Assembly: GCA_020201525.1 (NCBI GenBank)
Contig: JAIVGO010000094.1
Coordinates: 4,126-68,125 of the forward strand
DNA length: 64,000 nucleotides
DNA from: Actinomycetota bacterium
GTDB taxonomy: Bacteria > Actinomycetota > AC-67
Direction of reading: 5' to 3'
Below are positions 9,023 through 58,826 of the stretch, piece after piece; the stretch's first letter is position 1; each line of letters begins with the position of its first letter. The notes under the pieces are model-generated. The model was not told where the DNA came from, made no database searches, and was given only the letters and a program-made list of their open reading frames with translations. Made by a program: the position numbers and the translations under genes.

Positions 9023-9306
9023 TTCGTGTCCTCCGGGAGTTGCAGGGCGTTGCGTTCCATGATCTGGAGCACCTGGCGGAGCTGGTAGGGCTTGGCGTTC
9101 CCGCCGCGGGGTTGGAGGTTGAGGCGCTCCCCAATGTCGGGGTGGCGGTAGATGTGGTGGCTGCCCTGCACTCTGTCGAGGGTAAACCCGAGCGCTACCA
9201 CCAGGCGCTGCGCGTCGGTGAAGCTCACGTTGGCGACCCCATGGGGGACTGGAGGTGGTCGAGCGAGTCGTTGTTCGGTAGCGGATTGGATTGATTGGCT
9301 CGCCAC
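9019..9306 (-). CDS. hicA: HicA-family mRNA interferase toxin. The true start may be the internal GTG at 9228, giving about 70 aa.
   Basis: Motif FTLDRVQGSHHIYRHPDIGERLNLQPRGGNAKPYQLRQVLQIME, as in HicA/YcfA (GSHH...HP...K.G.LR.IL). The GTG start at 9306 gives 95 aa. Confidence 0.75.
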   Translation of the reverse strand: MASQSIQSATEQRLARPPPVPHGVANVSFTDAQRLVVALGFTLDRVQGSHHIYRHPDIGERLNLQPRGGNAKPYQLRQVLQIMERNALQLPEDTK

Positions 9307-9442
9307 GCCCGCGAGCGCCCGGTGACGCGATTCGCTCTACAAGGGACGAACGTTCACACTGCGTTGATCCTGTCGGAGGTCGGGGCAGATGGGGTATCGA
9401 ATACGCTCTTGCACCCGCGCTCGACCGAATGGAAATAGAGGA

Positions 9443-20984: not shown

Positions 20985-23900
20985 ATGCGCCGTTCGTCGC
21001 CCTCTACTGCCGCGACTCGCACCTCTCTGCACCGGGCACGCCGTTGGGCCGTGCGACCTACGGCGTGGATGATGGCCTTGAGTGTGATCACAAGTGGTCT
21101 GTCGATCGTGCCGGCGGTGGCAGCCGGCGCCGAAGCGAAGTCGGGAACGGCGGGGACGACGACCTTGGCCAATGTGCCTTCCGAACCGGCTGCGGCGCCG
21201 ACGGCTCCGGCGGTGCCTCTCGGCGACTTTTCGAATCCTCCGTCGCGGGAATCCAACAAGTCGTCCATGACCACTTCGGCTGGGCCGACGATCCGCGTCC
21301 AGCCGGCGGCCGACCGATTCAGGCCGGGGAAGAGCGTCGAGCTGCCGGAGCTCCGCAAGGCGAACGAGAAGACGTTCCTCAATCCGGACGGGAGCCACAC
21401 CACCCAGGTCTTCAACGCCCCTGTCCACGTGCTCGATTCGTCCGGGAAGTGGGAGGATCTCGACACGACGCTGACCTCCGCGGTCGGCGGACGGTTCAAG
21501 TCGAAGACCACCCAGGCCCCGGTGGATGTAGCCGCGAAGGGCACCGACGCGGTCTTGGGTCGCCTGACGGTGGACGCCAACCACAGCGCCGCCTTCGCCA
21601 TGGCCGGCGCGCGCCAGGTTCCGGCCACGGTGGCAGGCGACGTGGCGACCTACACGGGGATCCAGCCGGGCGTGGATCTGCGTCTCGCCAGCCATCCCGA
21701 CGGGCTCAAGGAGGATTTGGTCCTGGCGTCGAAGGATGCCCCGGATCATTTTGTCTTCCCGTTGACCCTGAAGGGCTTGACCGCTTCCATTGATAGCACC
21801 ACGGGCGACGTGGTCTATCGCAACAGCGCTGGGACGGAGGTGGCCCGGACTCCTCACGGGTGGATGGCAGACTCCAACGTGGATCCCAAGTCGGGCGAGC
21901 CGGCCCGCAGCTTCGGAGTGGTGTATCGCTTGGTCGACATCGGCAAGGGCCACGTGGCGCTCGATGTGCAGCTCGACCGGGCGTGGCTCCAGGCCCCGGA
22001 ACGGCAATTCCCGGTGACCGTTGACCCTTCGTACTGGCTGTCGACCACGCTGTCCGACGACACCTATGTGCAACGACCGTTCGTCAACAACCAGGGGTTT
22101 TGGTCGACGGACAGTGTGCTCAAGGTGGGCCATGCCGACGACCCGGGCCTTCCGTCGGACAACTTGGCCCAGTCGTTCATGCACTTCGACGTCTCGGGAC
22201 TCAACGGCAAGCAGATCGTGGATGCCAGCTTCTACGCCTACGAGACCTGGTCATGGTCATGTGCTGCTCGGGGCGTCGGGCTGTACCGGATTACCCAGCC
22301 GTGGTCGACGTCGGACTCGTTCATGCAGAGCTTCCCCGGCGCCAGCTATGCCGACCAGGTGGCGTGGGGATCGTTCGCCATGGGCCACGACGCCGGCTGT
22401 CCGGCCGGCTGGGCGTTTTGGGACATCACCCCGACGGTGACGAAGTGGACCAATGGGACGTGGGACCAGTACGGGCTGATGCTGAAGGTCGACTCTGTCT
22501 CCGAGGGCGACGTCTACGCCTGGAAGAAGTTCGCGTCGTGGAATACGGCGCTTGCGACCAGTTCCTGCGACATCCCCGGCAACCCGAACCCCGAAGATCC
22601 CTACCTCACGAAGTGCATTCCCCACATCAACATCGACTGGCAGGACCCGGCTCCGCCGAATAATCCCCCGACTGCGCCTGCGATGGTGACGCCGCCCTCG
22701 CCCGGCAACGGCACGGGCATCGGCACGCTGACGCCGCAGCTGCAGGTGTCGTCGACCGACCCGGACGGCGACGCCATCAGCTACCGGACCGAGGTCTCGA
22801 CCGATCCGGGGTTCGGGTCATTCACGGCCGTGTGTGACTGGGGCGGCCCGACCTGCAATCCGACCGGGCTGGCTTGGAACCGCACCTACTACTGGCGGGC
22901 CTGGTCCCGCGACGCCACCCACACGACGAGTCCCGCCGCCGTGTGGTCGTTCTCGACCCCGAACGCGGCACCCAGTCCGGGCACGCCGTTGACGCCCCCC
23001 AACGGCAACGGCATCACCACGCTCATGCCGATCCTGGAAGCCAACGCGGGATCGGATCCCAACAACGATGCCTTGCGCTACTGGTTCCGTCTCTCCGCCG
23101 ACGACGACCCCGAGGTCCACACCCTGTGGGATTCCGGCTGGCTGAACTCCTCCCAGTGGGTGATCCCCGGGATTCCCAGCGCGAAGGTCGTCAACCCCGC
23201 GCAGCCGACCACGCCGATCCTCAAGGACGGCGCCACCTACTCGTGGAAGCTGTACAGCACCGACGACATCAATGGGCAGGTCCAGTCAGCGACCTGGAAG
23301 TTCAAAGTCAGCTTCCGCCTCGGTGACCAGCCCTCCAGCCCGCTCGACGCGGTCGGGCCGGTCACGGTGAATCTTGCCACCGGCAACGTGGTCGTCAAGG
23401 CCGCTACCCCGACGATGACGACGGTCAGCGGCCCGATGGGGATCAGCTTCACGTACAACTCGCTCGCGCCGGCGGCGAGCACTCCGGCGCTGCCCCAGGG
23501 CTGGTCGATGTCCCTCGACGACGAGGCCACCCTGGCCTACTCCGGTCTGCTCACCCAACCCAACGGTGAAAGCATCGTCCTTGTCAGCCCGGACGGCGGG
23601 ACAAGCGAATACCGGCGGACGGGGACGGCGACGTCGACCTGGGCGCCGCTCAACGCCGACGACAGCGCGGTCGTGACCCAGAGCAGCAACGGTGACTACA
23701 TCGTCCAGGGCGGCGACGGCATCACCTACCGCTTCGGCCCCGACGGCCAGGGCAACTGGGTCCTGCAAGACGCCACCCAGGCAGCCGACGACCAGGGCCA
23801 CCCGAGCAGCCTGTTCTCGCACTGGGACACGACCACCGGTCGTCTCAGCAGCGTCGAGGATCCGGTCTCGCATCGCAGCATGAACCTGATCTATGGCGGC

Positions 23901-32665: not shown

Positions 32666-35600
32666 ATGGCTCGTCATCGCTCACTTGTCGCGCTGCTCGC
32701 GGCCACACTCATCACAGGCCTGCTAGCCCTGATACCTGCCACGCCAACGGCGCTGGCCGCAGCCAACAAGACGACACCCCGCCTCGTCAGGCAGACCGAG
32801 ACCACGGACGTCTACGCCAATGCCGACGGGAGCCGGACAGCGGTCTTCTATGCCGGGCCGGCGAACTTCTTCGACAAGACCACGAACCAGTGGCGCAAGC
32901 TCGACAAGGAGTTCCGTCGAGTCGGCGACCACCTCGAGAACGGCGCCGGGCCGGTGCGGGTCCAGCTGCCCAGCGATACCTCTGCCGGCAAGGTCACCGT
33001 GGCCAAGGACGACTGGTCGGCGAGCTTCGCGCTCGAGGACGCGAAACCCAACCGGCCCGGCAACGTCACCAAGGGCCAGGTCCGCTACGACGACGTCGCT
33101 GCCGCCGCCGGGGTGAGCCTCGACTATCGGATGTTGAGCAACGGCTTGAAAGAGGACATCGTCCTCGACCAGTCCCTGCCCGCCGGGTCGCCGGACCACT
33201 TCCGCTTCCGCCTCTCCGTCGCCGGAGCCACCCCGGCTGCCGTCGATGGCGGTACGGCCATCGCGCTCCAGGATGGCGCCGGCCACGAACTCGCCCGGAT
33301 CCCCCGGGGCATGATGGTCGACGCCAAGGGAGCAAAGGGCGTCGTGGACATGCATCTCGTCGAGCAGGGCGCATCCTGGTTTGTCGACGTCGCCCCAGAC
33401 CCAGCCTTCCTTCGAGGTGACCGGGCCTATCCCGTGCGCATCGATCCCAGCATCATCTACACGGCGACGGCGCCGACCGACTCCTTCACGGACTCGGTCT
33501 GCACGACCTGCAACTACAACGGCATGGCCACCCTCAAGGCCGGCTGGGCCAACGGCATGCCGGGGACCACGGAGTACTACTCGTACATCCGCTTTCCTGA
33601 CCTCACCCCCATCGTCGGCAAATGGGTCGCCAACGCCCAACTCCGTCTCGAAGCGACCTACCAGGTCGATCCGTCGAGCTACGGCGTGACCGCCTTGCGG
33701 ACCCACCAGTCGTGGAACGCCTCGACCATCACGTGGTCGAACATGGCGAACCACGGGCCCGAGAGCTCCCACGCGGCCGCCGGGGGCTACCCGGACTACT
33801 ACTTTGACGTCACCAGCTGGGCCCAGGGCTGGGCCGGCGGGCAAGACGGCGAGTGGATCAACGGCAAGTGGAGCCCCTACGGCGCCACCATCAACACCGC
33901 CGGCGCCGCCGCCTACTACCAACTCGGCGCCGCCGAATCGACCTTCGTGCCCAACATCCCCTCGCTGTCGGTCACCTACACCAACCAGAGCCCGAACCTC
34001 CCGACCGCGTTGTCGCCGGCCGACGGATGGACGGGAACCTCAACGCCCCAGCTCAGCGCCACGCTCAGCGACCCCGACGACAGCAACGGCTGGATCGAGT
34101 TCGACCTCGACAGCGCCAACACCGCCATCGTCCCAACCGTCAACGGGATCGCCTCCTTCACCCCGACGCTCGGAGCCGGCACCCACTCGTGGAGGGCTCG
34201 CGGCAGAGACTTCGATAGCGCCGGCCCCTGGACGGCCTTGCGGTACTTCACCGTCAACACCGCCCCCGCTATGCCGGACCAGCTCAGCCCCGCCGATGGC
34301 TACTACAGCACGACCCTGCCTGCCTTGTCGGCTCGCTATGTGGACGTCGACAACAACAGTGGGTCGCTCGCGTTCGAAGTCGACGGCGTGGCCCATTCCG
34401 TGACCGGAATCGCCAACGGCGCAACCGGCTCCTGCACGACAGCCAACCTGTGCCTCCCGAGCAGCCTGGCCCCGGGTCTCCACTCCTGGCGCGTCCAAGC
34501 TGTCGACGGGCTCGGGCTTCCCTCCACCTGGTCGCCGTACCAGCAGTTCGAGTACCACTATGCCGGGCAGGTTGTGCGCGAGGAATTCCCCGTCAACGGC
34601 TCGCAGTGGGACACTACGAAATGGGCGATCTCGAGCGGCCTCACCGTCTCGAACAACCAAGGTGTCTTCCCGGCCAGCACTGCATCGAAGCGGGCGACCG
34701 CGACAGCCGCCTACTTGCAGGACTCCGAAGTTTCGTTCACCTACTCCATCCCGGACCGCACGGCGGGAACCGAACTGCGCACCACGCTGCGAGGATACGG
34801 CGCCACCGGATCGGCGCAACTCCCCAACGGTTATCGCCTCGACATCCCATCAGGTCTGAATCAAGATGGTTCGACCACCATCTCACTCAAGAAGCTCGTG
34901 AACGGAGTGGTCACGCCGCTCGGATCATCCTTCAACTACACCGGGTCAGGCTACGTCAATACTCGTGTGCGGTTCCGTGTGGATGGTTCGACAATCAGCG
35001 TCAAGGTATGGCCGGCTGGAACGCTAGAGCCAACAGCATGGTCGGCTCAAAGGACTGACAGCAGCATCACTGCGGCCGGGACGCTTCAGATCGCCCAGTC
35101 CTGGCAGACCGGAAGCGGCCGCGTGATCAACGTCGACAACGTTACCTACGAAAACCGGTCCTTCTGGGGCGTTGACTCCTCGAAACCGATCAATCAGGCG
35201 AGGCTCGATGTCCTGAACACGCAGTATGGGGGAAGGCCGAACGTCTGGGGCCGGTACCTCACGACGCAAAAGTTAGACCGCCAGACATATGAAACGACGT
35301 ATTGCCCCCGGTGCGGTCTGAACGAAGAGCCTCCGGGCGACGAGATCACCTTCGCACAAAACAACAAGATCGCGATCCAAGTCATCCAACGGGCCAACAA
35401 CGGTGACATCCTCCTCGGTGAGCAACTCGGGCGCGACTACGCAAATCTCGCCCAGGAGCATGCGCAACGGCTCGGGATCCCCACCAGCGTGGCGATCTTC
35501 ATGAACATCGAGGAATGTGCGAACTCGTGTCGGGTTGATGCCGGATTCATCTGGGGGTGGTTCGATCAACTCGACCGAGTGTACGGACGCAAGGTGGGCT

Positions 35601-35989
35601 ACTACGCAAACACGACCACTATCCCGTCTCGGAGCGAGTTCGCGACTCAATTTTGCGCGGCGAACGCCGACCACGCTCGCGTCGGGTCCGACTCGTTCAT
35701 CTACGCCTCTGTGCCGTTCACCGGTCGCACGAAGGAGAGCGAAGCGCCGCCGTATGCTGCCAGCAACTTAGATTGCGGAGTCGTGTCTTCGACTGCGTGG
35801 CAGTACGGCCTCGCTGGCCAGGACCGGGCGTCGGGCTCGACCCTGACCGACCACCCTCAGGCCAAGTCGGACCCTACGCAAGGGCCGTCAGACTTCGACA
35901 CCGACCTGATCAAGCCGGAGCTGACTGACGTTCTCTGGTATCCAGGCGGCGTTTCCTGTCCCGCGCCTCGTGGCGCATACTGCATCTAG
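32666..35989 (+). CDS. Secreted multidomain protein, 1107 aa. Order: shared N-terminal module, DNRLRE-like domain, two FN3-like domains, LamG/ConA-like domain, C-terminal GH-like TIM-barrel domain (DUF1906/Rv2525c-like).
   Basis: Signal peptide MARHRSLVALLAATLITGLLALIPATPTALAAA. N-module homologous to the RHS1/2/3 N-termini. VKVWPAGTLEPTAWS LamG-like motif. C-terminal FWGVDSS...ILLGEQ...AIFMNIEE. The C-terminal third has lower GC. Confidence 0.8.
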   Translation: MARHRSLVALLAATLITGLLALIPATPTALAAANKTTPRLVRQTETTDVYANADGSRTAVFYAGPANFFDKTTNQWRKLDKEFRRVGDHLENGAGPVRVQLPSDTSAGKVTVAKDDWSASFALEDAKPNRPGNVTKGQVRYDDVAAAAGVSLDYRMLSNGLKEDIVLDQSLPAGSPDHFRFRLSVAGATPAAVDGGTAIALQDGAGHELARIPRGMMVDAKGAKGVVDMHLVEQGASWFVDVAPDPAFLRGDRAYPVRIDPSIIYTATAPTDSFTDSVCTTCNYNGMATLKAGWANGMPGTTEYYSYIRFPDLTPIVGKWVANAQLRLEATYQVDPSSYGVTALRTHQSWNASTITWSNMANHGPESSHAAAGGYPDYYFDVTSWAQGWAGGQDGEWINGKWSPYGATINTAGAAAYYQLGAAESTFVPNIPSLSVTYTNQSPNLPTALSPADGWTGTSTPQLSATLSDPDDSNGWIEFDLDSANTAIVPTVNGIASFTPTLGAGTHSWRARGRDFDSAGPWTALRYFTVNTAPAMPDQLSPADGYYSTTLPALSARYVDVDNNSGSLAFEVDGVAHSVTGIANGATGSCTTANLCLPSSLAPGLHSWRVQAVDGLGLPSTWSPYQQFEYHYAGQVVREEFPVNGSQWDTTKWAISSGLTVSNNQGVFPASTASKRATATAAYLQDSEVSFTYSIPDRTAGTELRTTLRGYGATGSAQLPNGYRLDIPSGLNQDGSTTISLKKLVNGVVTPLGSSFNYTGSGYVNTRVRFRVDGSTISVKVWPAGTLEPTAWSAQRTDSSITAAGTLQIAQSWQTGSGRVINVDNVTYENRSFWGVDSSKPINQARLDVLNTQYGGRPNVWGRYLTTQKLDRQTYETTYCPRCGLNEEPPGDEITFAQNNKIAIQVIQRANNGDILLGEQLGRDYANLAQEHAQRLGIPTSVAIFMNIEECANSCRVDAGFIWGWFDQLDRVYGRKVGYYANTTTIPSRSEFATQFCAANADHARVGSDSFIYASVPFTGRTKESEAPPYAASNLDCGVVSSTAWQYGLAGQDRASGSTLTDHPQAKSDPTQGPSDFDTDLIKPELTDVLWYPGGVSCPAPRGAYCI

Positions 35990-36267: not shown

Positions 36268-37533
36268 TCATGGTCCGAAGCGAATCGGTTCCCATGTCAG
36301 GCCCGAGTCGCGCGTGACGTACAGCCCCCCAGTCAGCACTACGCCATGACGGGAATCGACGAAGCTGATAGATCGGACCAGCTCGCTCTCCCCCGAGGCG
36401 TTGAACCGGACCGAGTACCGGCGGCCATCAACTCTTTCGACGTCAAGCTCCCCGGTATTCCGTGCGAGGAACTTGGCTTGCGTCGTGACGGCCACGGCGA
36501 TCACGTGAGGCACCCGACCTTGGCTCCTCCATTCCCGCCTCCAGGACTGTGCGCCGTCGGAACTCTCGTAGAGCTCGTAGACGGCCTGCTGGAAGGCGCC
36601 TTCCCCTGTCTGGCAGACGAAAACCAAGTCCCGGGGGCCACTCGCGGCCAGACTGCCGGCCCAGTCGCAGGGAGCCATTTCCCGGCGTTCCCAGTGCCCG
36701 GCGGGGGTCCGGGCGAAAAGCAGCGGCGGCTCGCCATCTTCCTTCGGCGCTCCATACCGTTGGACTGTGAGGTAAGCGGCGCCATCGTGAACCACAAGAT
36801 GGCCGTTGTGGAGTTGTCCCCCGCCGTAGGGTCGAGGCTCCACTTGCACCTCGAGGACAGAACGCCAGTCGTCGCTACCGACTTCTGCCTCGTACAGGCG
36901 CACCGGTCCGGTGCACTCCACCGCGCTGACCCCGCACGAGCCGACGACGGCATACACCCGCCCGGCGGTCGCCTCCAGCGACAGCACTGGATTGCCGAGG
37001 CGAACCGGGCGCCAGCTGGCACCGCCGTCATGCGTAGCCCACAACTCACGATCGAACACCCAGCCGTTCCGCTCATCGGCGAACCGAATGGCGCTCACAT
37101 AGCTCGCAGACCGTACCCGCTCACTCTCCCCGGCCGTCTCGGGCGCACCAGCGACCTGCCAATGCGCCCCTGCATCGCGGGTCCGAGCCACGACGGTGCA
37201 CGTTGCTTCTCCACAGGGCGCCTCGCCGAGCACCCAGCCGTCATCCTCGCTGATGAACGACACTCCCGAGGGATGAAAGCCCGATGGAGGGACAGCCCCG
37301 ACCAGCTCGCTACCCGACCTCAGCGGAGGCTGTGAGAATGCGCCGCTCGTACTGTCCTGACCCTGCGTCGGCGTGACCTTCGTCGCAGGCGCGGGGCTTA
37401 GGTGCCCCGAATTAGACACAAAGACGGCGCTCTGCGTTCCCCACCGAAGGCCTGAGACCGTGACGATGAGGACAGCGGCCAACACAAGCCATGGGGTCGC
37501 CGAACGCTGGATCCTATGCACGTCGACGTTCAT
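36268..37533 (-). CDS. N-terminally membrane-anchored BNR/Ycf48-like beta-propeller protein.
   Basis: TM helix PWLVLAAVLIVTVSGL. Repeated S/T-x-D-G-G-x-x-W-like motifs (THDGGASWRPV, SSDGAQSWRRE, TRDSGLTWEPI, TRDAGAHWQV). Confidence 0.55.
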   Translation of the reverse strand: MNVDVHRIQRSATPWLVLAAVLIVTVSGLRWGTQSAVFVSNSGHLSPAPATKVTPTQGQDSTSGAFSQPPLRSGSELVGAVPPSGFHPSGVSFISEDDGWVLGEAPCGEATCTVVARTRDAGAHWQVAGAPETAGESERVRSASYVSAIRFADERNGWVFDRELWATHDGGASWRPVRLGNPVLSLEATAGRVYAVVGSCGVSAVECTGPVRLYEAEVGSDDWRSVLEVQVEPRPYGGGQLHNGHLVVHDGAAYLTVQRYGAPKEDGEPPLLFARTPAGHWERREMAPCDWAGSLAASGPRDLVFVCQTGEGAFQQAVYELYESSDGAQSWRREWRSQGRVPHVIAVAVTTQAKFLARNTGELDVERVDGRRYSVRFNASGESELVRSISFVDSRHGVVLTGGLYVTRDSGLTWEPIRFGP

Positions 37534-37644
37534 ACCCGGCTCCCCCCGCAAAGTCCCCAGCCGTTTAAGAAAGAGTTTCGCAGGTGACCCCTCAGTTGTC
37601 AGGCCAGCCGGGTTGGGGAGTTCTGTATCACAACGGTGTAAGTC

Positions 37645-40608
37645 TCAGGGTCCGATGTCGATGCCAGCGCCCATGTCGGGCCCCGGAAGGGGCGGTCGGG
37701 CGACTTCGGCAAGGCGGTCGAGCCAGGGCGGCGTGTCTGGCGCCGCCCGGGGCAGCGATGCTTCCCGAGATTGGCTCAGTTCCGGCGACAGGCCAAGATC
37801 GGCGAGTTCGGCCTCGACGGTGCGGAGCCGGGAGTCGGGGAATCTGTGCTCGACATCCCATTTGAGGCGCTGGTCCGCTTCGGGTCGCAGCTCCTCGATC
37901 ACACGTTCGCAGCCGTCGATCTTCGCTTCGGCCTTGCGGACATCGCCGGTGAACCGGTCAATCTGATCGAGGGTTGAGGCTTTTTCTCGGCGGCCGTGAC
38001 TCCGGAACTGGGAGAGCCGGCCGAGCTGGTCGAGCCGTTCGCGGGCGTGATTGAGCCGGTAATGAGCCCAGTACAGCTCCTTCTTGGCTGATTCGAGGCG
38101 CAGTTCCGCCTGGTGCAGTGCTGGCCGGCGGTCAGGCGGGCGGTGCTGGAGGAGCGCCCGGAGCTCGGCTCGTTCGGCCAAGAGCAACTGAAGGCGGCTG
38201 GGGGCGTCGTGGATGGCGAAGCCGCTGTCGGGTTGGCGGCGGAGGGCGTCGAGGACTTCCCGGGTGGGGGTGCGCTGGTCGGCGAGGACGCCGCCGTGGT
38301 CGATGTCGGGCAGTCGGGTGACGTTCCAGGTGTGGGTGGCGTGGCGGGATCGGCTCTGGCCGGTGTAGCCGGTGAAGCGTTCGAGGGCGGCGGTGCCGAG
38401 GAGGTGGACCTGTTCCCACGTGCCGCCCTGGATGCCGTCGACGGTGCGGGCCCAGGCGTGGGAGCAGTTGGGACTGCCGTCGGCGCGGCGGCCTTCCACG
38501 AATTCGTGCGGGAGGGCCAGCCGGTGTCCCTCGCGGTCGACGGCCTGCAGCCCGTCGGCGCCGATGGCCGTGACGGTGAGGATGCTGCCGTTGTGGAGCC
38601 GCTGACCGTCGGTCCGGAGGGTGCCGTGGACGAGGAGACGGTCGCCGGCGGCGTAGCGGCGTTCGCCGTTGTTCCAGGCAGGGCCGGCCAGTTCGGGGCC
38701 GTGGAGATGGCCGGTGGCTCGGAGGCGGTGGCGGATGCGATCGGCGAGGTCTTCGCAGTCGGCGTGGGAGACGGCTAGGGCGACGAGCCCGGCGGCGCCG
38801 TGGCGGTCGATGTCGGCCATGAGGGCGTCGGCCAGCGCTTCGCGGGTGGCGTGGGGAGAGCCGAGGTCGTGTTCCCAGCCGTGGTCCTGTCGGATGGCCT
38901 GGCTGGTGGCGACGAGCCCGGCGCGGTAGCGGGCTAGGGCCCGTTGTTCGGCCGGGTCGAGTTGGCGGCGGTTCTCGGTCAATTCCGGGGCGGGGATGTG
39001 GCCGGTGGCACCGAGGCGGGCCAGTTCCGCACCGAGGCCTCCGGCCCGGACGGCTTGGGCCTGGTGGGGGTCGCCGAGGCACCACAGGGTGGCGCCGGGG
39101 GTGGCGGCGACGGCGTCGAGGACGATCTCGGCGTCGCTCGTGGCGACCTGGGACACCTCGTCGAGGACCACGACCGTCCCGGGCGGGAGGGCGGCGCCGT
39201 CGAGGGCGAAGCGGGCGATGGTCGTGGCGTCGATGCCGGCCTGGCGGAGTTCGCAGGCGGCCTGGTTGGTGGCGGCCAGGCCGAGGACGGGGTGTCCGGC
39301 CGCGCCGGCGGCCGTTGCGGCGGCGTGGACGGTGGTGGTCTTGCCGAACCCGGCGGGGGCGATGACGGTGCGGATGGCCGGGCCGGCGGCGCACAGCGCC
39401 TGGACGGCGTCGGCCTGGTCGTCGCCCAGGCCGGGCCTTTCGCCGGCGATCGCCCGCTTGACCAGTGGCGGTGGGATGGCGTCGACCGGCGTGGCGCACA
39501 GGTCAGCCACCAGATCCAGAACCCGCTCCTCGAGCAGGAGGTGGTCCGCGGTGGAGTACTGCGGCGACGTACGGCCGGTGCGGTCGGCCAGGGGGACGGC
39601 GTGCTCGGAGGCGAGAAAGGCGTCGGCCAGATCCTCGATGGCGTCGACGGGGAGGCGGCCGGCGCCAAGGGCGGCGATGTGTTCGACGACGTGCGCTTCG
39701 TTGAACCGGGCCCGCCGGGCGCACAGGCCTTCTTCCGGTTCGATGAGGGCGTCGACGAGGTCGTCCCACTCCAGCCCGGGCCGGAGCATCGGGATCGTCC
39801 GCCCGCAAACCTCGGCTTCGAGGGCGTGGCCGGTCGGCATCCCGATCCCATCGGCTTCGGCCTGCCACCGTTCCCGAAGCACCTCGGGAGTGAGGGAGCC
39901 GTCTCTGCGGGGTCGGGTGGCCAGTGATGCCGCCTCGTCCGCCCACATCCGCTGCTTGGGGTCGGGGTTCTCCGGGCCGGCGCCGGCCAGGTAGTCGTCG
40001 ATGGCGACCGTGCGCTTGGAGAACGTCCGCAGCCATCGGGGATCGAACCCGGCGATCTCCCGGCAGCCGTGGCGGTCCGGTCCCCATTCGACCCCCAACC
40101 GCTCGGTGAGACGCCGGCGGAGTTCTTCCTGGTACACCGATCCCGCCGCCCGGCCCCACTCGTAGAGCGGGGTGGCATCAAGCGCGGCGTAGGTGCCGTC
40201 GGGGCGGCGGCCGAAGTTGGCCACCACACAATGGCTATGCAGCTGGGGGTCACCATCGCGACTCGTCCGGTGAACGAAGGTGGCCGCCGCCACACCCGTC
40301 GGGATCCGCTGGCGTTCGCCCTCGACCTGGAGCCTCGTCGCTCCCGCCCGCCGCTCCAGCAGATCGAGGGCCACCGCCACGGCCTCGACATGAACGATCG
40401 ACGCCACCGATGCCACTTCCGGTGAGCCAAACGCCCACAGCAGCGACACCGATTTCGGCGCCGAGAACGTCACATCAAACGCCATCACCGTCCGGGCCCG
40501 ATGCCCGGCCAGCAGCTCGGTGTCCGTGGCCGGGTCCCGGCCGAGGAGTCCTTCACTGCCCCAAACTGGACCCCGCTCGGGATGGTCGAGGAGGCAAGTG
40601 CAACACAT
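37645..40608 (-). CDS. MobF-family conjugative relaxase with RecD-like helicase (TrwC/TraA-like). About 35-40 N-terminal aa appear to be missing, so it may be a pseudogene.
   Basis: Relaxase motifs FDVTFSAPKSVSLLWAFG and ATFVHRTSRDGDPQLHSHCVVANF. Helicase P-loop APAGFGKTT. The ORF opens at ...HPERGPVWGSEG with no upstream relaxase-like sequence; a stop lies about 100 nt upstream in frame. Confidence 0.75.
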   Translation of the reverse strand: MCCTCLLDHPERGPVWGSEGLLGRDPATDTELLAGHRARTVMAFDVTFSAPKSVSLLWAFGSPEVASVASIVHVEAVAVALDLLERRAGATRLQVEGERQRIPTGVAAATFVHRTSRDGDPQLHSHCVVANFGRRPDGTYAALDATPLYEWGRAAGSVYQEELRRRLTERLGVEWGPDRHGCREIAGFDPRWLRTFSKRTVAIDDYLAGAGPENPDPKQRMWADEAASLATRPRRDGSLTPEVLRERWQAEADGIGMPTGHALEAEVCGRTIPMLRPGLEWDDLVDALIEPEEGLCARRARFNEAHVVEHIAALGAGRLPVDAIEDLADAFLASEHAVPLADRTGRTSPQYSTADHLLLEERVLDLVADLCATPVDAIPPPLVKRAIAGERPGLGDDQADAVQALCAAGPAIRTVIAPAGFGKTTTVHAAATAAGAAGHPVLGLAATNQAACELRQAGIDATTIARFALDGAALPPGTVVVLDEVSQVATSDAEIVLDAVAATPGATLWCLGDPHQAQAVRAGGLGAELARLGATGHIPAPELTENRRQLDPAEQRALARYRAGLVATSQAIRQDHGWEHDLGSPHATREALADALMADIDRHGAAGLVALAVSHADCEDLADRIRHRLRATGHLHGPELAGPAWNNGERRYAAGDRLLVHGTLRTDGQRLHNGSILTVTAIGADGLQAVDREGHRLALPHEFVEGRRADGSPNCSHAWARTVDGIQGGTWEQVHLLGTAALERFTGYTGQSRSRHATHTWNVTRLPDIDHGGVLADQRTPTREVLDALRRQPDSGFAIHDAPSRLQLLLAERAELRALLQHRPPDRRPALHQAELRLESAKKELYWAHYRLNHARERLDQLGRLSQFRSHGRREKASTLDQIDRFTGDVRKAEAKIDGCERVIEELRPEADQRLKWDVEHRFPDSRLRTVEAELADLGLSPELSQSREASLPRAAPDTPPWLDRLAEVARPPLPGPDMGAGIDIGP

Positions 40609-42528
40609 GTTCGCGGTTGGGTAAGTGACACCAACCTCAATGGAGCGGCCACGACCGTCAAGGTCTATGTAGATGGATCCTCGACGCCGGCGGTCACCTT
40701 GACGGCCAACCTTTCTCGTGGCAATCCGTCAGTCAATAATGGCTTTGATTGGACGCCTCCATCAACGCTAAATCTCACGAACGGGACGCAGCATTCCTTC
40801 GTGGTAAAGGCGATAGATTACCCTTCGAATCCAAGTAACCCTGAGGTAGTGATCAGTAATCCGTTAACTACCTTTGTTCAGATGGATGATTCCTTCACAG
40901 GGAGCGACAATACCGACTGGTCAACTGTGAAATGGAATACGTCTGGTAACACGCTCGGCGGGACAGTGCGCGATGTTGATATCCTTTCTGGGCAAGGTCG
41001 GTTCTACGTCGCGAACGCGACTCAGGATGCCCAGGCGAAGCAGGCAACAGGTGAACCAGCCGTTCTCAACTCCGAGGCAGTAATGTCCTTGCGCTTCGCT
41101 GACCCGGGTGACTCAGCAAAAATGAAGGTCGCGCTCCGAGGAGCGAGCAACGTCTCCGGATCTTGGATGAGCGACGGCTACCAGCTGGAGATGCGTTCAT
41201 ACTCCAACCTCGTGAAGGTCTACCGAGTCGTCGGAACCGTCCGGACCGAGATCGGCGGGTTCACCTACACGTTCGGCACTGCCACGCACCGCCTGCGGTT
41301 CAAGGTCATCGGAACCAACCCGACGACCGTCTCGGTCAAGATGTGGCCGGCTGGAACAACGGAGCCGACGAGCTGGACGATACCTCCGATCGTTGACAGC
41401 ACCGCCCCAGTGACTGCGCCCGGCAAGCTCTTTGTCTCGCTAACCAATGGTGGCGGCACTCCCCGTACTGCGTATGTCGATGATCTTTCTCTGATACGGC
41501 TTAATAACACTATCGACGACGAGCCGAACAATCCGGCTGGCACTGCACCGCCGAACAGCATCTCTCGTTACGTCGACACGGCTGACCCTCAAAAGCTCCA
41601 CGACGCCGGTGCTGAAGATGCTGCCGCTGCCTTCCGGGTCATGACGGTCCTTGACTTCGGAGACCAAAATATCGACGGAGCACATTGGTACTCCCTCGGT
41701 TTGAGCGGCGACACGATTAAGAGCCTTGCCAAGCAATATATTGATGGCTTCTATAACGCCGCTGCGAGTGGGCAACAGGTAACCGTGGCCCTTGGGGTTT
41801 CGTGCAGCGGATACACCGGTAGCCGGGCAGACAAGAGGCAGAACGCCCGCGACAAGGGCGCAATTTGGGCCCAGCTCGTCAGCGATGTCTACACAACAGC
41901 TCGAGCCGATCACCCGAACACCCAAGTTCGAGTTGGCGGTGCGTATGACGTCGAATCTGAGGCAGGGTTCTGTGGTCCGCGCGTTTCCGGGAACCCGGGC
42001 GACGGCCCGAGCACTGCAGCGGCCTGGGTGGCTGGGTTCGACGAGAAGCAGACAAGCATCAGCATGAACGGAGGTTTGCCGCTCTTCTACGCGAACTTCG
42101 GTTCCGCCAACGGTTGCCCTCCCGCCGGCTCCTGTTCGGACGGCTGGACTCAGGAAGATTACTGGTCGCTCAGTACCGGTCCGAGGTCAGCGGTCGGATA
42201 CCCGGAAATCTATGGTACGAGCAACGATGAACAGTGGCAGCAGATTGGGATCTACGGTGTGGACCAGCACGGTGACAACCAGGACACGAGAATCGACTTC
42301 GTAGGTGCGATGACGCAACGCCAGGCGTGCCTGCAGGATCGACGCGACAACCCGGACCATGTCCCGGCAGACCAGATCCAGACGCATTACTGCAACGGGA
42401 CAGATCAGGACGCCCCGACTGGATGGAACGCCTTGAAGAACACGCTGGAGAGCAACCAGAAGACGGCCCAGCCAGTCGGATTCTCGACCGACATCATGTG
42501 GCTCGGCCGCGCGCCGCAGCTAGGCTGA
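40582..42528 (+). CDS. Ig-like plus LamG-like domain protein lacking a signal peptide and N-module. Likely a 5'-truncated member of the secreted-protein family.
   Basis: VSVKMWPAGTTEPTSWTIPP...GKLFVSLTNGGGTPRTAYVDDLSL (LamG-like motif shared with 32666 and 52817). Much lower GC (~50%) than neighbours. The first ~100 nt of the track ORF are antisense to the relaxase. Confidence 0.5.
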   Translation: MVEEASATHVRGWVSDTNLNGAATTVKVYVDGSSTPAVTLTANLSRGNPSVNNGFDWTPPSTLNLTNGTQHSFVVKAIDYPSNPSNPEVVISNPLTTFVQMDDSFTGSDNTDWSTVKWNTSGNTLGGTVRDVDILSGQGRFYVANATQDAQAKQATGEPAVLNSEAVMSLRFADPGDSAKMKVALRGASNVSGSWMSDGYQLEMRSYSNLVKVYRVVGTVRTEIGGFTYTFGTATHRLRFKVIGTNPTTVSVKMWPAGTTEPTSWTIPPIVDSTAPVTAPGKLFVSLTNGGGTPRTAYVDDLSLIRLNNTIDDEPNNPAGTAPPNSISRYVDTADPQKLHDAGAEDAAAAFRVMTVLDFGDQNIDGAHWYSLGLSGDTIKSLAKQYIDGFYNAAASGQQVTVALGVSCSGYTGSRADKRQNARDKGAIWAQLVSDVYTTARADHPNTQVRVGGAYDVESEAGFCGPRVSGNPGDGPSTAAAWVAGFDEKQTSISMNGGLPLFYANFGSANGCPPAGSCSDGWTQEDYWSLSTGPRSAVGYPEIYGTSNDEQWQQIGIYGVDQHGDNQDTRIDFVGAMTQRQACLQDRRDNPDHVPADQIQTHYCNGTDQDAPTGWNALKNTLESNQKTAQPVGFSTDIMWLGRAPQLG

Positions 42529-42551: not shown

Positions 42552-43358
42552 GTGAGGACCGTGCGGCAACGTCGCTGTCGATTAACCGCAGTGCTGTTCA
42601 CTTGCGTCGCTCTGGGATTAGCTGCCTGTCGAGATGGAAGCGAGCCCCCCGCTGCGCAACGAGCCGCCGCCAAGCCAACCACCTCATCGACGCTGCTGAA
42701 CGGAGAAGCTCAAGGAACTCCACCGGCCGGAAACCGACCGACTTCGAGCTCTGTAGCCCCCGGGCCGACGACTGTTGCAAGGGTGAGGCCGGGGGTCTCG
42801 TCGCCGACCTCGTCCACTACCACTCCCAGCCAACCCGACAGACCTCTCTATGCAGCGTGCGGTGAACGGAGTTTTTCCGATATCGCTCTTCTGCGGAATA
42901 CCCCGGTTGCGAATCGAGCGCCTTGGACCAAGGTTGCCCAAGTCCTCGTAGCGAACCACTACGGTCCAGACTGCTCATATGAGGGATCCCCGCAAGTAGT
43001 TCTCGCTCGAGACCTCGCGGTTGGGGGAGAATTACCGACGCAGACAAAACACGCAGATGATTTCGAAGAACGGTGGGTCAATCTTCGCTGGACGCACACC
43101 GAGACAGGGTATGAATATAAGGGTCGGACAGGTTATTTTCTTATATACACCACAGATCGAACGGACGACGGCGCACCTTGCCCATTAACTCGGATGATCA
43201 CTGGTGAGAAGCCTCATGTGAAGTTTCCTCCGACTGACGGGAGCGGAACCTTCAGCGGAAGTCCCGTATACGACGGGCCAGTCTTAGCGTCATGTGACGG
43301 CCGGATTTCAGTCACAGCATTAGCACAAGCACCGGACTCGGTCGTCGGAGACCGTTGA
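42552..43358 (+). CDS. Lipoprotein downstream of the LamG-domain protein. Candidate partner or inhibitor.
   Basis: gaaggaagg RBS, then GTG. VRTVRQRRCRLTAVLFTCVALGLAACRDG has a lipobox (LAAC). Low GC like the upstream gene. No recognised domain. Confidence 0.5.
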   Translation: MRTVRQRRCRLTAVLFTCVALGLAACRDGSEPPAAQRAAAKPTTSSTLLNGEAQGTPPAGNRPTSSSVAPGPTTVARVRPGVSSPTSSTTTPSQPDRPLYAACGERSFSDIALLRNTPVANRAPWTKVAQVLVANHYGPDCSYEGSPQVVLARDLAVGGELPTQTKHADDFEERWVNLRWTHTETGYEYKGRTGYFLIYTTDRTDDGAPCPLTRMITGEKPHVKFPPTDGSGTFSGSPVYDGPVLASCDGRISVTALAQAPDSVVGDR

Positions 43359-51800: not shown

Positions 51801-51963
51801 CAAGAAGTCCGAGTAGCGACGAAGCCTTGTCCCGCTTAGTTCTCTGGCCTCCGTGTTCGGTGGCCCAGAGATTCCTTGAGAGTCGAGACTCTGGATCGGC
51901 GGCGAACAGCCTCGGCTAAATCGTCGGTTGCACAAGTGTGCCTATGAATGCGGCGATGGCCGG

Positions 51964-52816: not shown

Positions 52817-55800
52817 GTGCGTCGAGAGGAACGGGTTGGATTCGTGAGATTCTTTACGGCAGTCCGGAAGACGAAGCGGAGCCGTCGGGCTGGCGGCCTC
52901 CTTGCCGTGTCGTTGCTTGTCAGCGCGTTGCCGGCGGGCGCAGCCGACGATGGGACCACTCTGGCTGTCTCTGCCGCCTCGACCGCTCCTGCCGCAGCGG
53001 TCGGCGCCAAGCCCTTCATCGGCTTCGTGCCAGGGCAGAGCGTCGAGGACGTTTCGAAGCGAACGGCGCAGTCAAAGACCTTCCGGAACCCCGACGGGAC
53101 CTATACGGCTCAAATTTCGTCCGATGTCGTGCACTACTGGACCGGCACCGGATGGGCCGAGATCTCCAACCGGCTCGTGCCCGACGGGCCCGGCAGTTAC
53201 CGCAACGAGGCCAACTCCTTCACCGTTCGTTTCGGGGCAGCAGACGTCGTGCTGGACACGCCGCAAGGCGCAATGAACCTGGGGCCGTCCGGCGCGTCGT
53301 TGCGTGCTCCCGTGCTCGACCCAGTGGGCGAGACCGTCACGTACGCGGACGTATGGCCCGGAGTGGATGTCCGCTATCGAGTCGTCAGCACCGGCGTAAA
53401 AGAAGAAATCGTGGTCCGGCGGCGGCCAACGATCAGCCAATTTCCGTTCCGCCTCCAAGGCGCGGCGATGACCGTCCAGGCCGACGGCAGCGTGGCCATG
53501 GGCGGCGCCTTCGCCGGCACGTGGAGGATCCCCGCACCGCAGGTGTTCGCCAAGGACGGACAACTCATCAGCAAGACTGGCGCCCGCTTCACCGTGACCG
53601 GAAACACCATCACCCTGAATGTCGACCGCAGCTGGCTTGCCGGTCTGGACGAGACGAAAGATCTGCCCGTCGTTCTCGATCCGCCAATCCTCTCCGTCGG
53701 GTCGACGACCGGCCGTTCCTACGAACGCCTCTCTTCGGACACCGACTACGGCACGTGCGACAGCATCCCCACGCCCTGCCAGGTAATGGTCGGCATCCGC
53801 AACACCACGAACGGCTGGCACCCCTGGCGGTCGGTGCAGTACTTCCCCTACGAGTCGCTGTACGGCAAGCAAATCCTCAAAGGACAGGTCATCCTGCAAG
53901 CTCGCCAGGAAGGCACGCCCGACCCGAAGGTCATGAAGATCTACGGCGACGACGTCAACGGCCAGTTCGGCGGCGTCTGGAACTGGGTGAACCTCGGCGG
54001 CTTCATCGCCTCCGGTACGGCGCAGGACGACACGTTCATCTACGACGAAGCCGAGAGCGGACCGCACCCGCTGGCCGACTACTACCAGGATCTCGTCAAC
54101 CGCAACCTGCCCGGCATGGCGATCAAGTTCCTCGGGGACGAAACCCCGGGCAACTCAACGTTCAAGCGATTCGCCTGGTTCCAGCTCCAACTCACGTACA
54201 ACACGCCGCCGAATGTCCCCGACACACTGAGCCAGACCTGGTCGTCTGGGTTCACCGCGCCGGAACTCTCCGCCCGGTTCACCGACCCCGACGGCGACAA
54301 CGGCAACGTCGACTTCGAAGTCACCCGCCCGGACGGCTCGAAACTCCTCGTGCCGGTCGGGACGACCAACGGAGGGACCGCCCGGACCACGCCCGCTGTG
54401 AGCGCCGCCGGCACATACTCCTGGCACGTCCGAGCCTGGGATGGAAGGACCCTGTCCCGCAATCCCGAATGGTCGAGCGATCAGACCTTCACGGTCATTA
54501 CCGACGTCGCCCCGAACGTTCCAGACAACCTTGCCCCTGACAACAACGCGGCCAGTGCGTCAGCCCCCACGCTCTCCGCCCGGTACACCGCCAACGATGG
54601 GCAAGGCGGATGGATCGAGTTCGACCTCGGCAGTGAAGACCAGGTCATTTTAGTGCCCGCTGCGCACAACCAGACCGTGAGCTTCACTCCAGACACGCTC
54701 ATGGAGGGGAACTATTCCTGGCGGGTTCGAGCCACTGACGGAACCTACGAATCTGCTTGGACGCCATGGCGCTACTTCAACGTGAGAAAAAACCTTGTTT
54801 GGTACGAGAACTTCACCGGTAACAATGGCGATCTTTGGAACAGCTCCCGCTGGAGCACCGGGACGAATAGTCTCACGAGGACAGTCGATATTCAAAGTAA
54901 CGAAGGGCGGCTCTACGTTAACGGCTCCTCGGCAGGGGCGACCGCTCGACAGGCCGGCTCGAACATCAACCTTGCGGATATCGACGTCGCGTTGACGTTC
55001 CGGTTCGAAAACACCAACACTCGAAGCTTCCTGCGGCTCAGGGCACGAGACTCAGGCACGAACGCCTATCGTGTCGAACTCCGCAACGACTCCACCACCG
55101 TCAAGTTGCAAAACATTCTCAACGGCGTATCCGGCGCGATCACACAGTTCACGTACAACCCCGATGGCCAAGCCGGCTTCGATCCTGGAAGCCATCGCCT
55201 GCGTGTTCAGCTCACGGGCAGCACCGTCCGAGTGAAAGCGTGGCCGGCGAACAGCGCCGAACCAGACACCTGGCAGATCGATCGGACCGATACGTCCGTC
55301 ACCGGCCCAGGCGTCCTGAAGATCGACCACAATTACGACACCGGATCACGCAGCATCTACCTCGATGACGTGGCGGTCGCGAATCTCCAGGTCCAAGGGG
55401 GAACTCAGCCAGAGCTCAAGATGTGGGATGAGTATCCCAACCACGGGTACGCCGACATGGCCAGAGTGACGGACGGCGGAACCCTCCTTGGGTTCACCTC
55501 CGACCGATGCAAGGCGGTTGAAAACGACCTCATCGCCCAAGTCAAAGCGACCACGGAAGGAAGCCAACCGGAATTCCGGGGTGCCTGGCCGAGCGGACTA
55601 ATCCTGCACCGAGGCTCCGACTGCATCGGCCGGGTCGGCGACGGCGTCCATATCACGCTCGACTACATGACCGACAGCGAATGGACCCAGTCGGGTCCGG
55701 GGCATGGAAAGAACGGTGGCCATGTCCACTCCTTCCTAGCCGCCCCAGAATGGTGCGATGTTCACGGATACACCAAGATCAACGGAAGATGCGGCTTGGA

Positions 55801-56029
55801 ATTCAGCCGGGTCCACCTCAAGGAATCGAAGTTCGACACCGTGTACCCGAATGACACCGTCAGGCGGAACGTTCTCATCCACGAGACCGGCCATGCTTTC
55901 GGCTTCAAGGACGACTGCTCCACGAAGGCGATCACCAATGACGGATCGTGCGGTCTCCCTCAAGGCTGGACATCCATCGACAGGCGAGAGATGCGGGATC
56001 ACATCTACACCAACTTCCCGTACCCGTGA
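52817..56029 (+). CDS. Secreted multidomain protein, 1070 aa. Order: shared N-terminal module, DNRLRE-like domain, two FN3-like domains, LamG-like domain, C-terminal snapalysin/M7-like metzincin (HExxHxxGxxD).
   Basis: Signal peptide. N-module homologous to the RHS N-termini. VRVKAWPANSAEPDTWQIDRTD LamG-like motif. C-terminal VLIHETGHAFGFKDDCS. The C-terminal third is lower in GC. Confidence 0.8.
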   Translation: MRREERVGFVRFFTAVRKTKRSRRAGGLLAVSLLVSALPAGAADDGTTLAVSAASTAPAAAVGAKPFIGFVPGQSVEDVSKRTAQSKTFRNPDGTYTAQISSDVVHYWTGTGWAEISNRLVPDGPGSYRNEANSFTVRFGAADVVLDTPQGAMNLGPSGASLRAPVLDPVGETVTYADVWPGVDVRYRVVSTGVKEEIVVRRRPTISQFPFRLQGAAMTVQADGSVAMGGAFAGTWRIPAPQVFAKDGQLISKTGARFTVTGNTITLNVDRSWLAGLDETKDLPVVLDPPILSVGSTTGRSYERLSSDTDYGTCDSIPTPCQVMVGIRNTTNGWHPWRSVQYFPYESLYGKQILKGQVILQARQEGTPDPKVMKIYGDDVNGQFGGVWNWVNLGGFIASGTAQDDTFIYDEAESGPHPLADYYQDLVNRNLPGMAIKFLGDETPGNSTFKRFAWFQLQLTYNTPPNVPDTLSQTWSSGFTAPELSARFTDPDGDNGNVDFEVTRPDGSKLLVPVGTTNGGTARTTPAVSAAGTYSWHVRAWDGRTLSRNPEWSSDQTFTVITDVAPNVPDNLAPDNNAASASAPTLSARYTANDGQGGWIEFDLGSEDQVILVPAAHNQTVSFTPDTLMEGNYSWRVRATDGTYESAWTPWRYFNVRKNLVWYENFTGNNGDLWNSSRWSTGTNSLTRTVDIQSNEGRLYVNGSSAGATARQAGSNINLADIDVALTFRFENTNTRSFLRLRARDSGTNAYRVELRNDSTTVKLQNILNGVSGAITQFTYNPDGQAGFDPGSHRLRVQLTGSTVRVKAWPANSAEPDTWQIDRTDTSVTGPGVLKIDHNYDTGSRSIYLDDVAVANLQVQGGTQPELKMWDEYPNHGYADMARVTDGGTLLGFTSDRCKAVENDLIAQVKATTEGSQPEFRGAWPSGLILHRGSDCIGRVGDGVHITLDYMTDSEWTQSGPGHGKNGGHVHSFLAAPEWCDVHGYTKINGRCGLEFSRVHLKESKFDTVYPNDTVRRNVLIHETGHAFGFKDDCSTKAITNDGSCGLPQGWTSIDRREMRDHIYTNFPYP

Positions 56030-56095: not shown

Positions 56096-56554
56096 ATGAA
56101 AGCCCGCAATAGGATGCGCTGGGCAAGTGCTCGCTTCTTCATTCCCGTGCTCGCCATTCTCGCGGGTCTGGTTGGGATGGCGTCGCTCGCCAGCGCCGGC
56201 CCTGACAAGGCGCCCTCCAAGGGGCGGCCGATGCTGGGTTGCTCAAAGCTCGTTCCCGGGGCGGGATCGCAAGAGAGCCAGGACCTCTTCGACCCCGAGA
56301 GCGGGCAGCTGGTGGTATCGACGCCTAGCGCCGACTACCTTCTGTCCGAGAATGACCCTGAGTGCAAAGCGAATCCCGAAGCCCGAGGTCGGCTCGCTGA
56401 GGCCCGGTCCATGGCGAACGAGAACCACAGGGCCATGTGCGAGGACTTCAACCGCTATGTGGCAGAAGGCACCACCGAAGTGAACGGCCGCCCCATCAAT
56501 CTTGACGCTGCTCGGCAAGCTCTCCAGGGAGGATGTGTCGGTTGGCTTCGCTGA
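56096..56554 (+). CDS. Small secreted Cys-containing protein immediately downstream of the metzincin-domain gene. Candidate inhibitor or immunity protein.
   Basis: GGAGG, then ATG. MKARNRMRWASARFFIPVLAILAGLVGMASLASA signal peptide. 4 Cys. Lower GC. Confidence 0.55.
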   Translation: MKARNRMRWASARFFIPVLAILAGLVGMASLASAGPDKAPSKGRPMLGCSKLVPGAGSQESQDLFDPESGQLVVSTPSADYLLSENDPECKANPEARGRLAEARSMANENHRAMCEDFNRYVAEGTTEVNGRPINLDAARQALQGGCVGWLR

Positions 56555-58626: not shown

Positions 58627-58826
58627 ACGCTGAGGTAATTTCGTCCGGGCATTCGGCTTCCAGCTTCTGGACCATTAACCGGGCGAGCCGACCGGCCCGG
58701 CTTCATGGCATTTCGGGCAGCGGGCACGCAACCGCCGCAAGGGTTCGACGAGTCCTCTCCAGCGCGTCGCAGCAGCGGCCGATCCTGCCTTTCGGCTTAG
58801 CTCCCGCACGAAGGGCCTGTTCGCTG

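Follow-up and report, generated by a model that had tools for sequence, protein, structure and literature searches.

Short polymorphic toxins without central repeats have already been described, as have lectin-type domains, Laminin-G among them, that stand at the N-termini of polymorphic toxins, among their RHS repeats or near the toxin itself (Zhang et al. 2012, PMC3482391). The Rhs-type polymorphic toxin WapA of S. suis binds the cell wall through its N-terminal fragment, which consists of a Sec signal and a DNRLRE region (PMC12704120). Here we describe three genes, A, B and C, that lie in a 64,000-nucleotide stretch (the window; 66% GC overall) of the 81.8-kb contig JAIVGO010000094.1 from the metagenome-assembled genome of an uncultured soil Actinomycetota bacterium, each of which encodes a concanavalin-A (ConA)-like module of about 200 residues followed by a C-terminal domain, the tail. 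We propose that A and C form an RHS-less branch of the WapA/RHS-type polymorphic toxins, in which a scaffold carries an exchangeable unit of module, enzyme and partner gene, and that B is a displaced, truncated cassette; we give this reading a probability of roughly 0.55.

The three genes resemble the polymorphic toxin systems of Zhang, Aravind et al. 2012 (PMC3482391) in encoding secreted multidomain proteins with a conserved N-terminus and a variable C-terminus, in having an adjacent gene for a small exported protein that appears to be tail-specific, in the occurrence of truncated copies that look like orphans, in the lower GC of the variable part and in their mobile-element neighbourhood. 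They differ in that the lectin-like module seems to move with the toxin and not to belong to the constant region; no tail or partner of A, B or C matches a catalogued Tox, Ntox or Imm family, motifs that mark or cleave off the toxin (DPxGL, VENN, HINT) are absent from the proteins, and two of the partners are large beta-propellers, one of them convergent. The Streptomyces umbrella toxins (PMC11062931) offer a further parallel, a secreted antibacterial system of actinobacteria in which diversified lectins target and polymorphic C-terminal toxins kill. An umbrella particle, however, is a complex to which lectins (UmbA) and toxin (UmbC) contribute as distinct proteins, whereas here lectin module and toxin are one polypeptide; no Umb-type domains were found here. 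The theme is already known, and what is new is a module family without a model, its co-transfer with the tail, tails and partners that are unassigned, and a scaffold that serves both with an RHS shell and without one.

A scaffold shared with RHS toxins

All three genes are real long open reading frames with high GC at third codon positions (GC3). Gene A (32666..35989, + strand), delimited as an open reading frame with its translation, encodes 1107 residues in the order signal peptide, DUF7948/DNRLRE-CBM96 scaffold, two Ig-like domains, ConA-like module and Rv2525c-like tail. Its N-terminus reads MARHRSLVALLAATLITGLLALIPATPTALA/AANK, a signal peptide by sequence reading, and within the scaffold Pfam places CBM96 at residues 266-394 and NCBIfam places DNRLRE at residues 272-436. 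Gene C (52817..56029, +) encodes 1070 residues from a GTG start, is annotated from 52844 as the 1061-residue MCA1832889.1, and consists of a signal peptide, a DUF7948 scaffold, two Ig-like domains, the module and a zincin tail. Gene B (40501..42528, +; 675 residues as annotated, MCA1832880.1) has an Ig-like domain, the module and a tail, and is a 5'-truncated copy. B and C are both annotated as 'hypothetical protein'.

Upstream of their tails A and C are 29% identical over about 750 residues (BLASTP, E 7e-49), and the scaffold that they share, comprising DUF7948 and a DNRLRE/CBM96 domain, also forms the N-termini of the RHS genes of the window. Residues 40-614 of A (32783..34507, +) match residues 73-665 of RHS1 (BLASTP, E 5e-33) and residues 121-699 of RHS2 (E 6e-25), and the scaffold of C matches both genes as well. 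The homologous region lies at 892..2670 (+) in RHS1 (gene 676-8187, identified by the RHS_repeat Pfam model), at 21345..23081 (+) in RHS2 (gene 20985-28919) and at 58902..60638 (+) in a third RHS gene, which was found by tblastn with A, RHS1 and RHS2 and runs off the end of the window. An N-terminus of Sec signal and DNRLRE scaffold is what these proteins have in common with the Gram-positive Rhs/WapA toxins (S. suis WapA, PMC12704120; RHS1-3). Unlike them, A, B and C lack YD/RHS repeats, an RHS core and an aspartyl autoprotease motif: no RHS_repeat Pfam match was obtained at E<=0.1, YD-like motifs number 0 in A, B and C vs 13 in RHS1 and 8 in RHS2, and none of the three proteins contains a GRFxxxDP or DPxG[LWM] core-end motif. 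As RHS repeats and core are absent, the payload is not encapsulated; it is also 2-3 times larger than typical RHS tips.

The module, too, is found near the tip of many RHS proteins elsewhere. Sixteen RHS proteins have the RHS-core end motif 80-100 residues behind the module, and the tip behind that motif; these tips are 49-204 residues long (107-146 residues in 14 of the 16) and fall into 15 unrelated clusters. In the relatives P0005 and P0009, two tandem modules lie inside the YD-repeat region. The initial annotation had regarded the module genes as a second polymorphic system, separate from that of the RHS genes, a view that we abandon because A and C carry the scaffold of RHS1, RHS2 and the third RHS gene and because the module is common in RHS toxins elsewhere. 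Rather than a second system in its own right, the A/C type is a branch of this scaffold family that lacks the RHS part.

The RHS genes yielded several observations of their own. The frame of the third gene is open over 58602-64000 (+), begins just after a tyrosine recombinase gene (57832-58626) and over 61356-63995 matches residues 849-1859 of RHS2 (E 2e-107). RHS2 has a canonical core motif, GRFLSVDP...DPVNDFDLDG, at residues 2476-2510, just before its GC3 change-point at residue 2521, vs a degenerate core-end motif, RQYDPGIRRFTTPD...NPVGFFEDG, in RHS1. The low-GC3 tip of RHS1 (7696-8187) contains AHEIVH, an HExxH-type motif in a region where Pfam finds nothing, and this sequence suggests a zinc-peptidase toxin; Pfam scans assigned neither the RHS1 nor the RHS2 tip to a toxin or immunity family.

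The module and its three tails

The module occupies residues 631-835 of A (34556..35170, +; located by BLASTP, its fold assigned by homology to the modelled C module), residues 126-335 of B (40876..41505, +; located by BLASTP to the A and C modules) and residues 656-860 of C (54782..55396, +; the sequence used for the AlphaFold model), and tblastn over the whole 64-kb window finds exactly these three copies. Pairwise BLASTP E values range from 1e-15 to 1e-23 at about 30% identity, which makes the similarity significant, and the motif (V/I)(K/R)(V/A/M)WPA..EP..W, from which a module common to the three genes had first been proposed, lies in a block that is invariant across the A, B and C modules.

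The same annotation had described the module as LamG/ConA-like, of which the ConA part holds. The AlphaFold model of the C module (mean predicted local distance difference test score, pLDDT, 94.5) is a ConA-like jelly-roll with two sheets, superposable on ConA-like structures, and its closest folds are L-type lectins, GH16, CBM66 and actinophage receptor-binding domains. LamG proper finds no sequence model in its favour: Laminin_G is absent from the Pfam matches of 26 module sequences at E<=1, no Pfam model is significant for the window modules, and a sequence search of the PDB with the module returned nothing significant. The PF06439 (CBM66) model matches 2 of the 26 module sequences, with a best E of 1.9e-4, and the module profile compared with the levanase CBM66 gives E 0.36. 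Sequence identity of the module to CBM66/DUF1080 (PF06439, 3-keto-disaccharide hydrolase-like) and to the L-type lectin and GH16 families is 9-15%, and in distinction from these it has a signature of its own, DxFTG..G..W...KW ... (V/I)(K/R)xW..G..EP..W, with an R, an E, a D, a P, a Y, three W and three G as the invariant or near-invariant residues of the alignment. The label 'LamG', like the label 'snapalysin' given to the tail of C, expresses superfamily-level resemblance only.

Exhaustive HMMER searching brought the family to light, finding the module in no fewer than 3,407 representatives of clusters at 50% identity; word-indexed searches with the module, the B-tail profile and the A scaffold had given three to four matches each, and a contig profile search with the three-sequence module alignment gave four weak loci only and no reference-genome synteny. 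Among the 150 best representatives the module stands at the C-terminal end, in tandem or embedded in large proteins, and dozens of module proteins end at the module, without a tail. The family has no Pfam or NCBIfam model, often occurs in several copies per protein, in proteins of up to 4,577 residues, and merits a family definition.

The tail of A (residues 836-1107; 35171..35989, +) is an Rv2525c/DUF1906 glycoside-hydrolase-like domain, and here the first assignment was right. Against Pfam PF08924 it scores 24.9 bits, just below the 27.2 cut-off, a four-sequence profile of A-type tails matches PDB 1SFS with E 3.6e-25 over 209 positions (Rv2525c itself was matched weakly), and the tail of the relative P0042 lies above the PF08924 cut-off at 34 bits. 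Rv2525c has been proposed as a peptidoglycan hydrolase (Bellinzoni 2014, as cited in PMC12419801). The tail of A aligns with 1SFS over about 210 residues, yet the known members of the family (PF08924; PDB 1SFS, 4PMN) are small, standalone, secreted proteins, whereas in A a scaffold protein of 1,100 residues carries the domain as its C-terminal payload and has a conserved propeller neighbour. The only related precedent that we found is a TelC-PGBD-Rv2525c fusion in conflict systems. At the related locus L006 the A-type gene looks split, with a 193-residue open reading frame (7348-7929) that encodes the signal peptide and first scaffold domain lying 71 nucleotides upstream of an 883-residue gene (8001-10652) that starts within the scaffold; this may be due to a frameshift or an assembly error.

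The tail of C (residues 861-1070; 55397..56029, +) is a putative zinc metallopeptidase with homologous tails in P0007 and P0028. Its zinc-binding motif, HExxHxxGxxD (HETGHAFGFKDD; 55880..55915, +), which contains HETGHAFGFKD, is invariant in the three homologues, in whose alignment H162, E163, T164, G165, H166, G169, D173 and C174 are conserved throughout. The tail had been called a snapalysin-like metzincin; the motif is there, and the family match that the name snapalysin would require is missing, since Pfam reports no Peptidase_M7 match. Reprolysin_5 (E 5.7e-5), Reprolysin_2/_4 and Zincin_1 are matched below threshold, no PDB sequence relative was found, and in the putative Met-turn (DRREM) the Met is not invariant among the homologues.

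The tail of B (residues 336-675; 41506..42528, +) is a conserved domain of about 340 residues, with 61 invariant columns among five sequences, DFE and WTQDDYW included. It recurs behind the module in P0058, P0061, P0074 and P0109 and standalone in P0154-P0156, and it has no Pfam or PDB sequence relative, in agreement with its original listing as a domain of no assigned family. Kinship with the tail of A was considered and rejected (hhalign probability 0.2%), and single-sequence AlphaFold prediction of full-length B gave an unusable model (pLDDT 34.7).

Gene B has no signal peptide, and its alignment with full-length relatives begins only at residue 22, which pairs with residue 457 of P0058, so that about 450 N-terminal residues are missing. 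The DNA that precedes it is GC-rich and belongs to a TrwC relaxase gene on the minus strand, of which it forms the 5' end; this gene is truncated too, its Pfam match beginning at protein residue 22 and at profile position 53 of 286. As B homology starts at residue 22 and the TrwC match at position 53, two truncated genes meet at about 40545-40564, and B is a 5'-truncated remnant, not a fusion of the module to an N-terminal part like that of A and C, as had been assumed. At this unstranded junction (40545..40564), TrwC homology ends, B homology begins and GC steps from 0.72 to 0.49; it looks like a rearrangement scar involving a conjugative element. Together with its lipoprotein neighbour B resembles an orphan cassette with its partner, but it abuts a truncated relaxase and does not lie in a cassette array.

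The relaxase gene (37645-40608, -), which also encodes an AAA_30 helicase and is without the first ~52 relaxase profile positions, stands head-to-head with B, and the A-type gene of locus L011 is also flanked by a TrwC gene and an integrase. A second truncation, within or near the module, was seen in P0166, a 623-residue paralogue with a full A-type scaffold (60% identical) that ends partway through the module and lies on the same 49.9-kb ENA contig as L011 and the intact P0035 gene.

Evidence for cassette exchange, and candidate partner genes

Among the 150 best module representatives, 95 tails of at least 120 residues fall into more than 30 unrelated clusters; counted as families, more than 25 unrelated kinds of tail stand behind the module, those with an identifiable family including an Amidase_3 peptidoglycan amidase and M10/M66- and DUF3152-like zinc peptidases. 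The scaffolds of P0035 and P0046 are 63% and 61% identical to that of A, closer than the scaffold of the A 'orthologue' P0011 at 56%, and even so the module of P0035 is about 39% identical to that of A with an unalignable tail, and the tail of P0046 is non-homologous. P0056 compares with C at 69% in the scaffold and about 36% in the module, its tail being unrelated, whereas P0007 compares with C at about 25% in the scaffold, about 90% in the module and about 55% in the tail; Pfam scans of the P0035, P0046 and P0056 tails found no toxin family. This incongruence of scaffold, module and tail requires recombination, and it follows from the same four comparisons that the module goes with the tail and not with the scaffold. 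In keeping with this, non-RHS pairs in a set of 68 proteins have a median module identity of 44.6% when the tails are of the same type vs 31.3% when they differ, and when the closest module was sought for each of 50 proteins, it came in 34 cases from a protein that shares the tail type.

The modular C-terminal replacement that had been suggested for these genes is therefore supported, in that module-plus-enzyme units behave among the relatives as exchangeable cassettes. Recent swapping among the copies of the window is not indicated, as the three modules are, by their sequences, paralogues of about 30% identity. Between C and P0007, third codon positions of identical residues match only 50-70% within the 90%-identical module, which is under strong purifying selection, and on the same figures recent recombination between C and locus L002 was rejected. 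Near-saturated synonymous sites and window modules of about 30% identity together mean that the exchanges are old.

The cassettes are also marked by their base composition. Gene A falls from 67.4% GC in its N-terminal part to 60.8-60.9% in module and tail, and its GC3 from 0.879 to 0.737/0.754 (permutation p<5e-5), with the maximum-likelihood change-point at residue 664, about 30 residues inside the module; gene C falls from 64.5% to 58.4-60.0% GC and from 0.809 to 0.727/0.762 in GC3 (p=0.008). The profiles are not flat and, in A and C, the direction is that first reported; the magnitude given at the time, 50-58% against about 70%, was overstated, and the drop does not occur in each case, as B, whose GC is 56-60% along its whole length, lacks a high-GC N-terminal part. 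Far stronger GC3 steps mark the tips of the two RHS genes (0.913 to 0.601 and 0.866 to 0.674). A GC3 step recurs at the start of the cassette in the related loci L002, L011, L012 and L013, and weakly in L001, and GC3 is as low in the partner genes of the window (0.54-0.74) as in the cassettes. The window, L002, L005, L006 and L011 all have an integrase or relaxase gene next to these loci.

Each of the three genes has a candidate partner next to it. That of A encodes an exported, membrane-anchored BNR/Ycf48-like beta-propeller (36268..37551, -; GC3 0.743) and is convergent with A; Pfam PSII_BNR/BNR models match it below threshold, homologues stand at the same position in L001 (85% identical) and L006 (59%), and a BNR propeller neighbour accompanies the Rv2525c tail in all 3 of 3 loci. 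The candidate partner of B is a lipoprotein gene (lipobox LAAC; 42552..43358, +; GC3 0.535) that starts 24 nucleotides after the B stop and whose product is 38% identical (E 3e-28) to that of the DUF4232 gene after the B-type P0058 in L003/L004. Gene C is followed by a beta-propeller lipoprotein gene (lipobox LTAC; 56533..57561, +; GC3 0.676) with a sub-threshold Pfam Vgb_lyase match and a 55% identical homologue directly after the C-type gene of L002, giving a pairing with the zincin tail in 2 of 2 loci. The neighbours of three further tails are a 92-residue lipoprotein encoded 1 nucleotide downstream of P0035 (L011), a 239-residue open reading frame 15 nucleotides downstream of P0046 (L013) and a 54-residue open reading frame beside P0056 (L012). 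All of the proteins involved bear the label 'hypothetical', and the module, several of the tails and all of the partners are without a family model.

Competing readings and neighbouring genes

Based on these data we propose that A and C would be Sec/Tat-exported effectors, built on the N-terminal scaffold of the neighbouring RHS/WapA-type toxins without the RHS shell, that may be directed at competing bacteria. The first piece of the cassette would be a non-catalytic ConA-like lectin module, which probably binds a cell-envelope glycan, and the second a C-terminal enzyme that would act, as a toxin, outside the cytoplasm, peptidoglycan-hydrolase-like in A, a putative zinc peptidase in C and an unassigned domain in B. 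The third would be the adjacent gene, whose exported or lipid-anchored product is specific for the type of enzyme and might most simply be an immunity protein or inhibitor. Scaffold lineages would have swapped whole cassettes through recombination that took place upstream of the module and left a signature of lower GC3 like that of the RHS tips, and B would be a cassette that was displaced and lost its 5' part but kept its partner gene. If this is true, uncultured soil Actinomycetota possess an unannotated branch of interbacterial toxins whose variable unit is lectin-like module, toxin and partner, offering candidates for new antibacterial enzymes that act on the cell envelope and for their inhibitors, a sequence signature for cassette boundaries in RHS and non-RHS toxins, and a link between toxin targeting and the envelope glycans recognised by actinophages.

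A wider and more tentative idea is that the module is an undescribed, very widespread targeting domain of Gram-positive-type polymorphic toxins that moves as a unit with warhead and immunity gene, onto an RHS shell or a WapA-like scaffold. Each cassette would then bring its own receptor specificity, killing activity and self-protection, and the module would resemble the receptor-binding domains of actinophages because both recognise the same glycans of the envelope.

Several points weigh against the effector reading. The partner of A is convergent and not co-directional, which is unusual for immunity genes; no partner of the window or its relatives, the 92- and 239-residue products included, matches a known immunity family by Pfam beyond one faint Tli3 flag; and that flag belongs to locus L005, where a B-type gene is followed by a BNR propeller lipoprotein and not by DUF4232. 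Rv2525c-like, amidase and protease domains are also found in ordinary housekeeping and degradative exoenzymes. The synonymous sites, being near saturation, point to ancient exchange rather than to active polymorphism at the population level, and since the closest pair of scaffolds with different tails is 69% identical in protein and no near-identical pair was found, unrelated tails on related scaffolds hold at the family level and not at the strain level. The tendency of the module to track the tail is supportive only, being confounded by the overall relatedness of proteins with the same tail, and the sample is small, most relatives lying on short metagenomic contigs.

Some of these points are what would be expected of ordinary secreted modular hydrolases, active in cell-wall remodelling or in the breakdown of necromass and polymers, with the module as a carbohydrate-binding module and the neighbours as helpers or coincidental, an explanation that we regard as the main rival, though a less probable one than the effector reading. 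It would account for the closeness of the module to CBM66 and GH16, for the presence in the scaffold of CBM96, an alginate-binding family, for the fact that the tails with identifiable families are hydrolases, for the dozens of proteins that end at the module without a tail, for the antiquity of the exchange and for the lack of a partner that matches a known immunity family. It leaves unexplained, however, why the same scaffold stands on three RHS toxins within 64 kb, why the module takes the pre-tip position in many RHS toxins, why a tail-specific exported neighbour is kept across unrelated contigs, why many of the tails are short and rich in Cys and fall into no known enzyme family, and why integrase and relaxase neighbours go along with GC3 drops like those of RHS tips. 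Were it true, the genes would be modular exoenzymes with a new family of carbohydrate-binding-like modules, useful for annotation and unsurprising.

It is improbable that no cassettes were exchanged and that the drops in GC and steps in identity arose from differing constraint and codon usage in anciently fused genes. The GC3 step of C is modest (0.81 to 0.74, p=0.008), third-position identity is similar along C and its L002 counterpart, and the modules of the window are only about 30% identical, all of which such an account would accommodate. Variation in rate, however, cannot make P0056 the nearest relative of C in the scaffold (69% vs 25%) and P0007 the nearest in the module (90% vs 36%), nor does it provide for the tails of P0035, P0046 and P0056, in which homology to the A and C tails cannot be detected, and GC3, which is largely independent of amino-acid constraint, steps at the same architectural point in six loci. 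That the module is itself a catalytic GH16-like glycanase and the proteins bifunctional enzymes is very improbable: although GH16 enzymes are among the best fold matches, reading of the alignments finds no ExDxxE-type GH16 catalytic motif in the module sequences, on which ground such a role was rejected, the best size-normalised structural match is the non-catalytic CBM66 (template modelling score, TM, 0.78-0.81), and modules are also found as tandem arrays and within stretches of RHS repeats.

Other genes of the window lie close to those discussed. Upstream of C, a 715-residue open reading frame (49788-51935, -; GC3 0.89) without a Pfam family is homologous (tblastn, E 7e-16) to a 594-residue signal-peptide protein encoded upstream of the B-type gene of L003 (L003 5219-7003, -), and this family is a recurring neighbour of module genes. 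Between C and its propeller lipoprotein lies an open reading frame for a 152-residue protein with a signal peptide (56096-56554, +; GC3 0.725; no Pfam match), which is absent at the equivalent position of L002 and could be a second, window-specific partner or inhibitor. Two genes for serine proteases, a secreted S8 subtilase (44009-45241, +) and a ClpP-like protein of the SDH type (30383-31372, -), lie between or beside the toxin-like genes.

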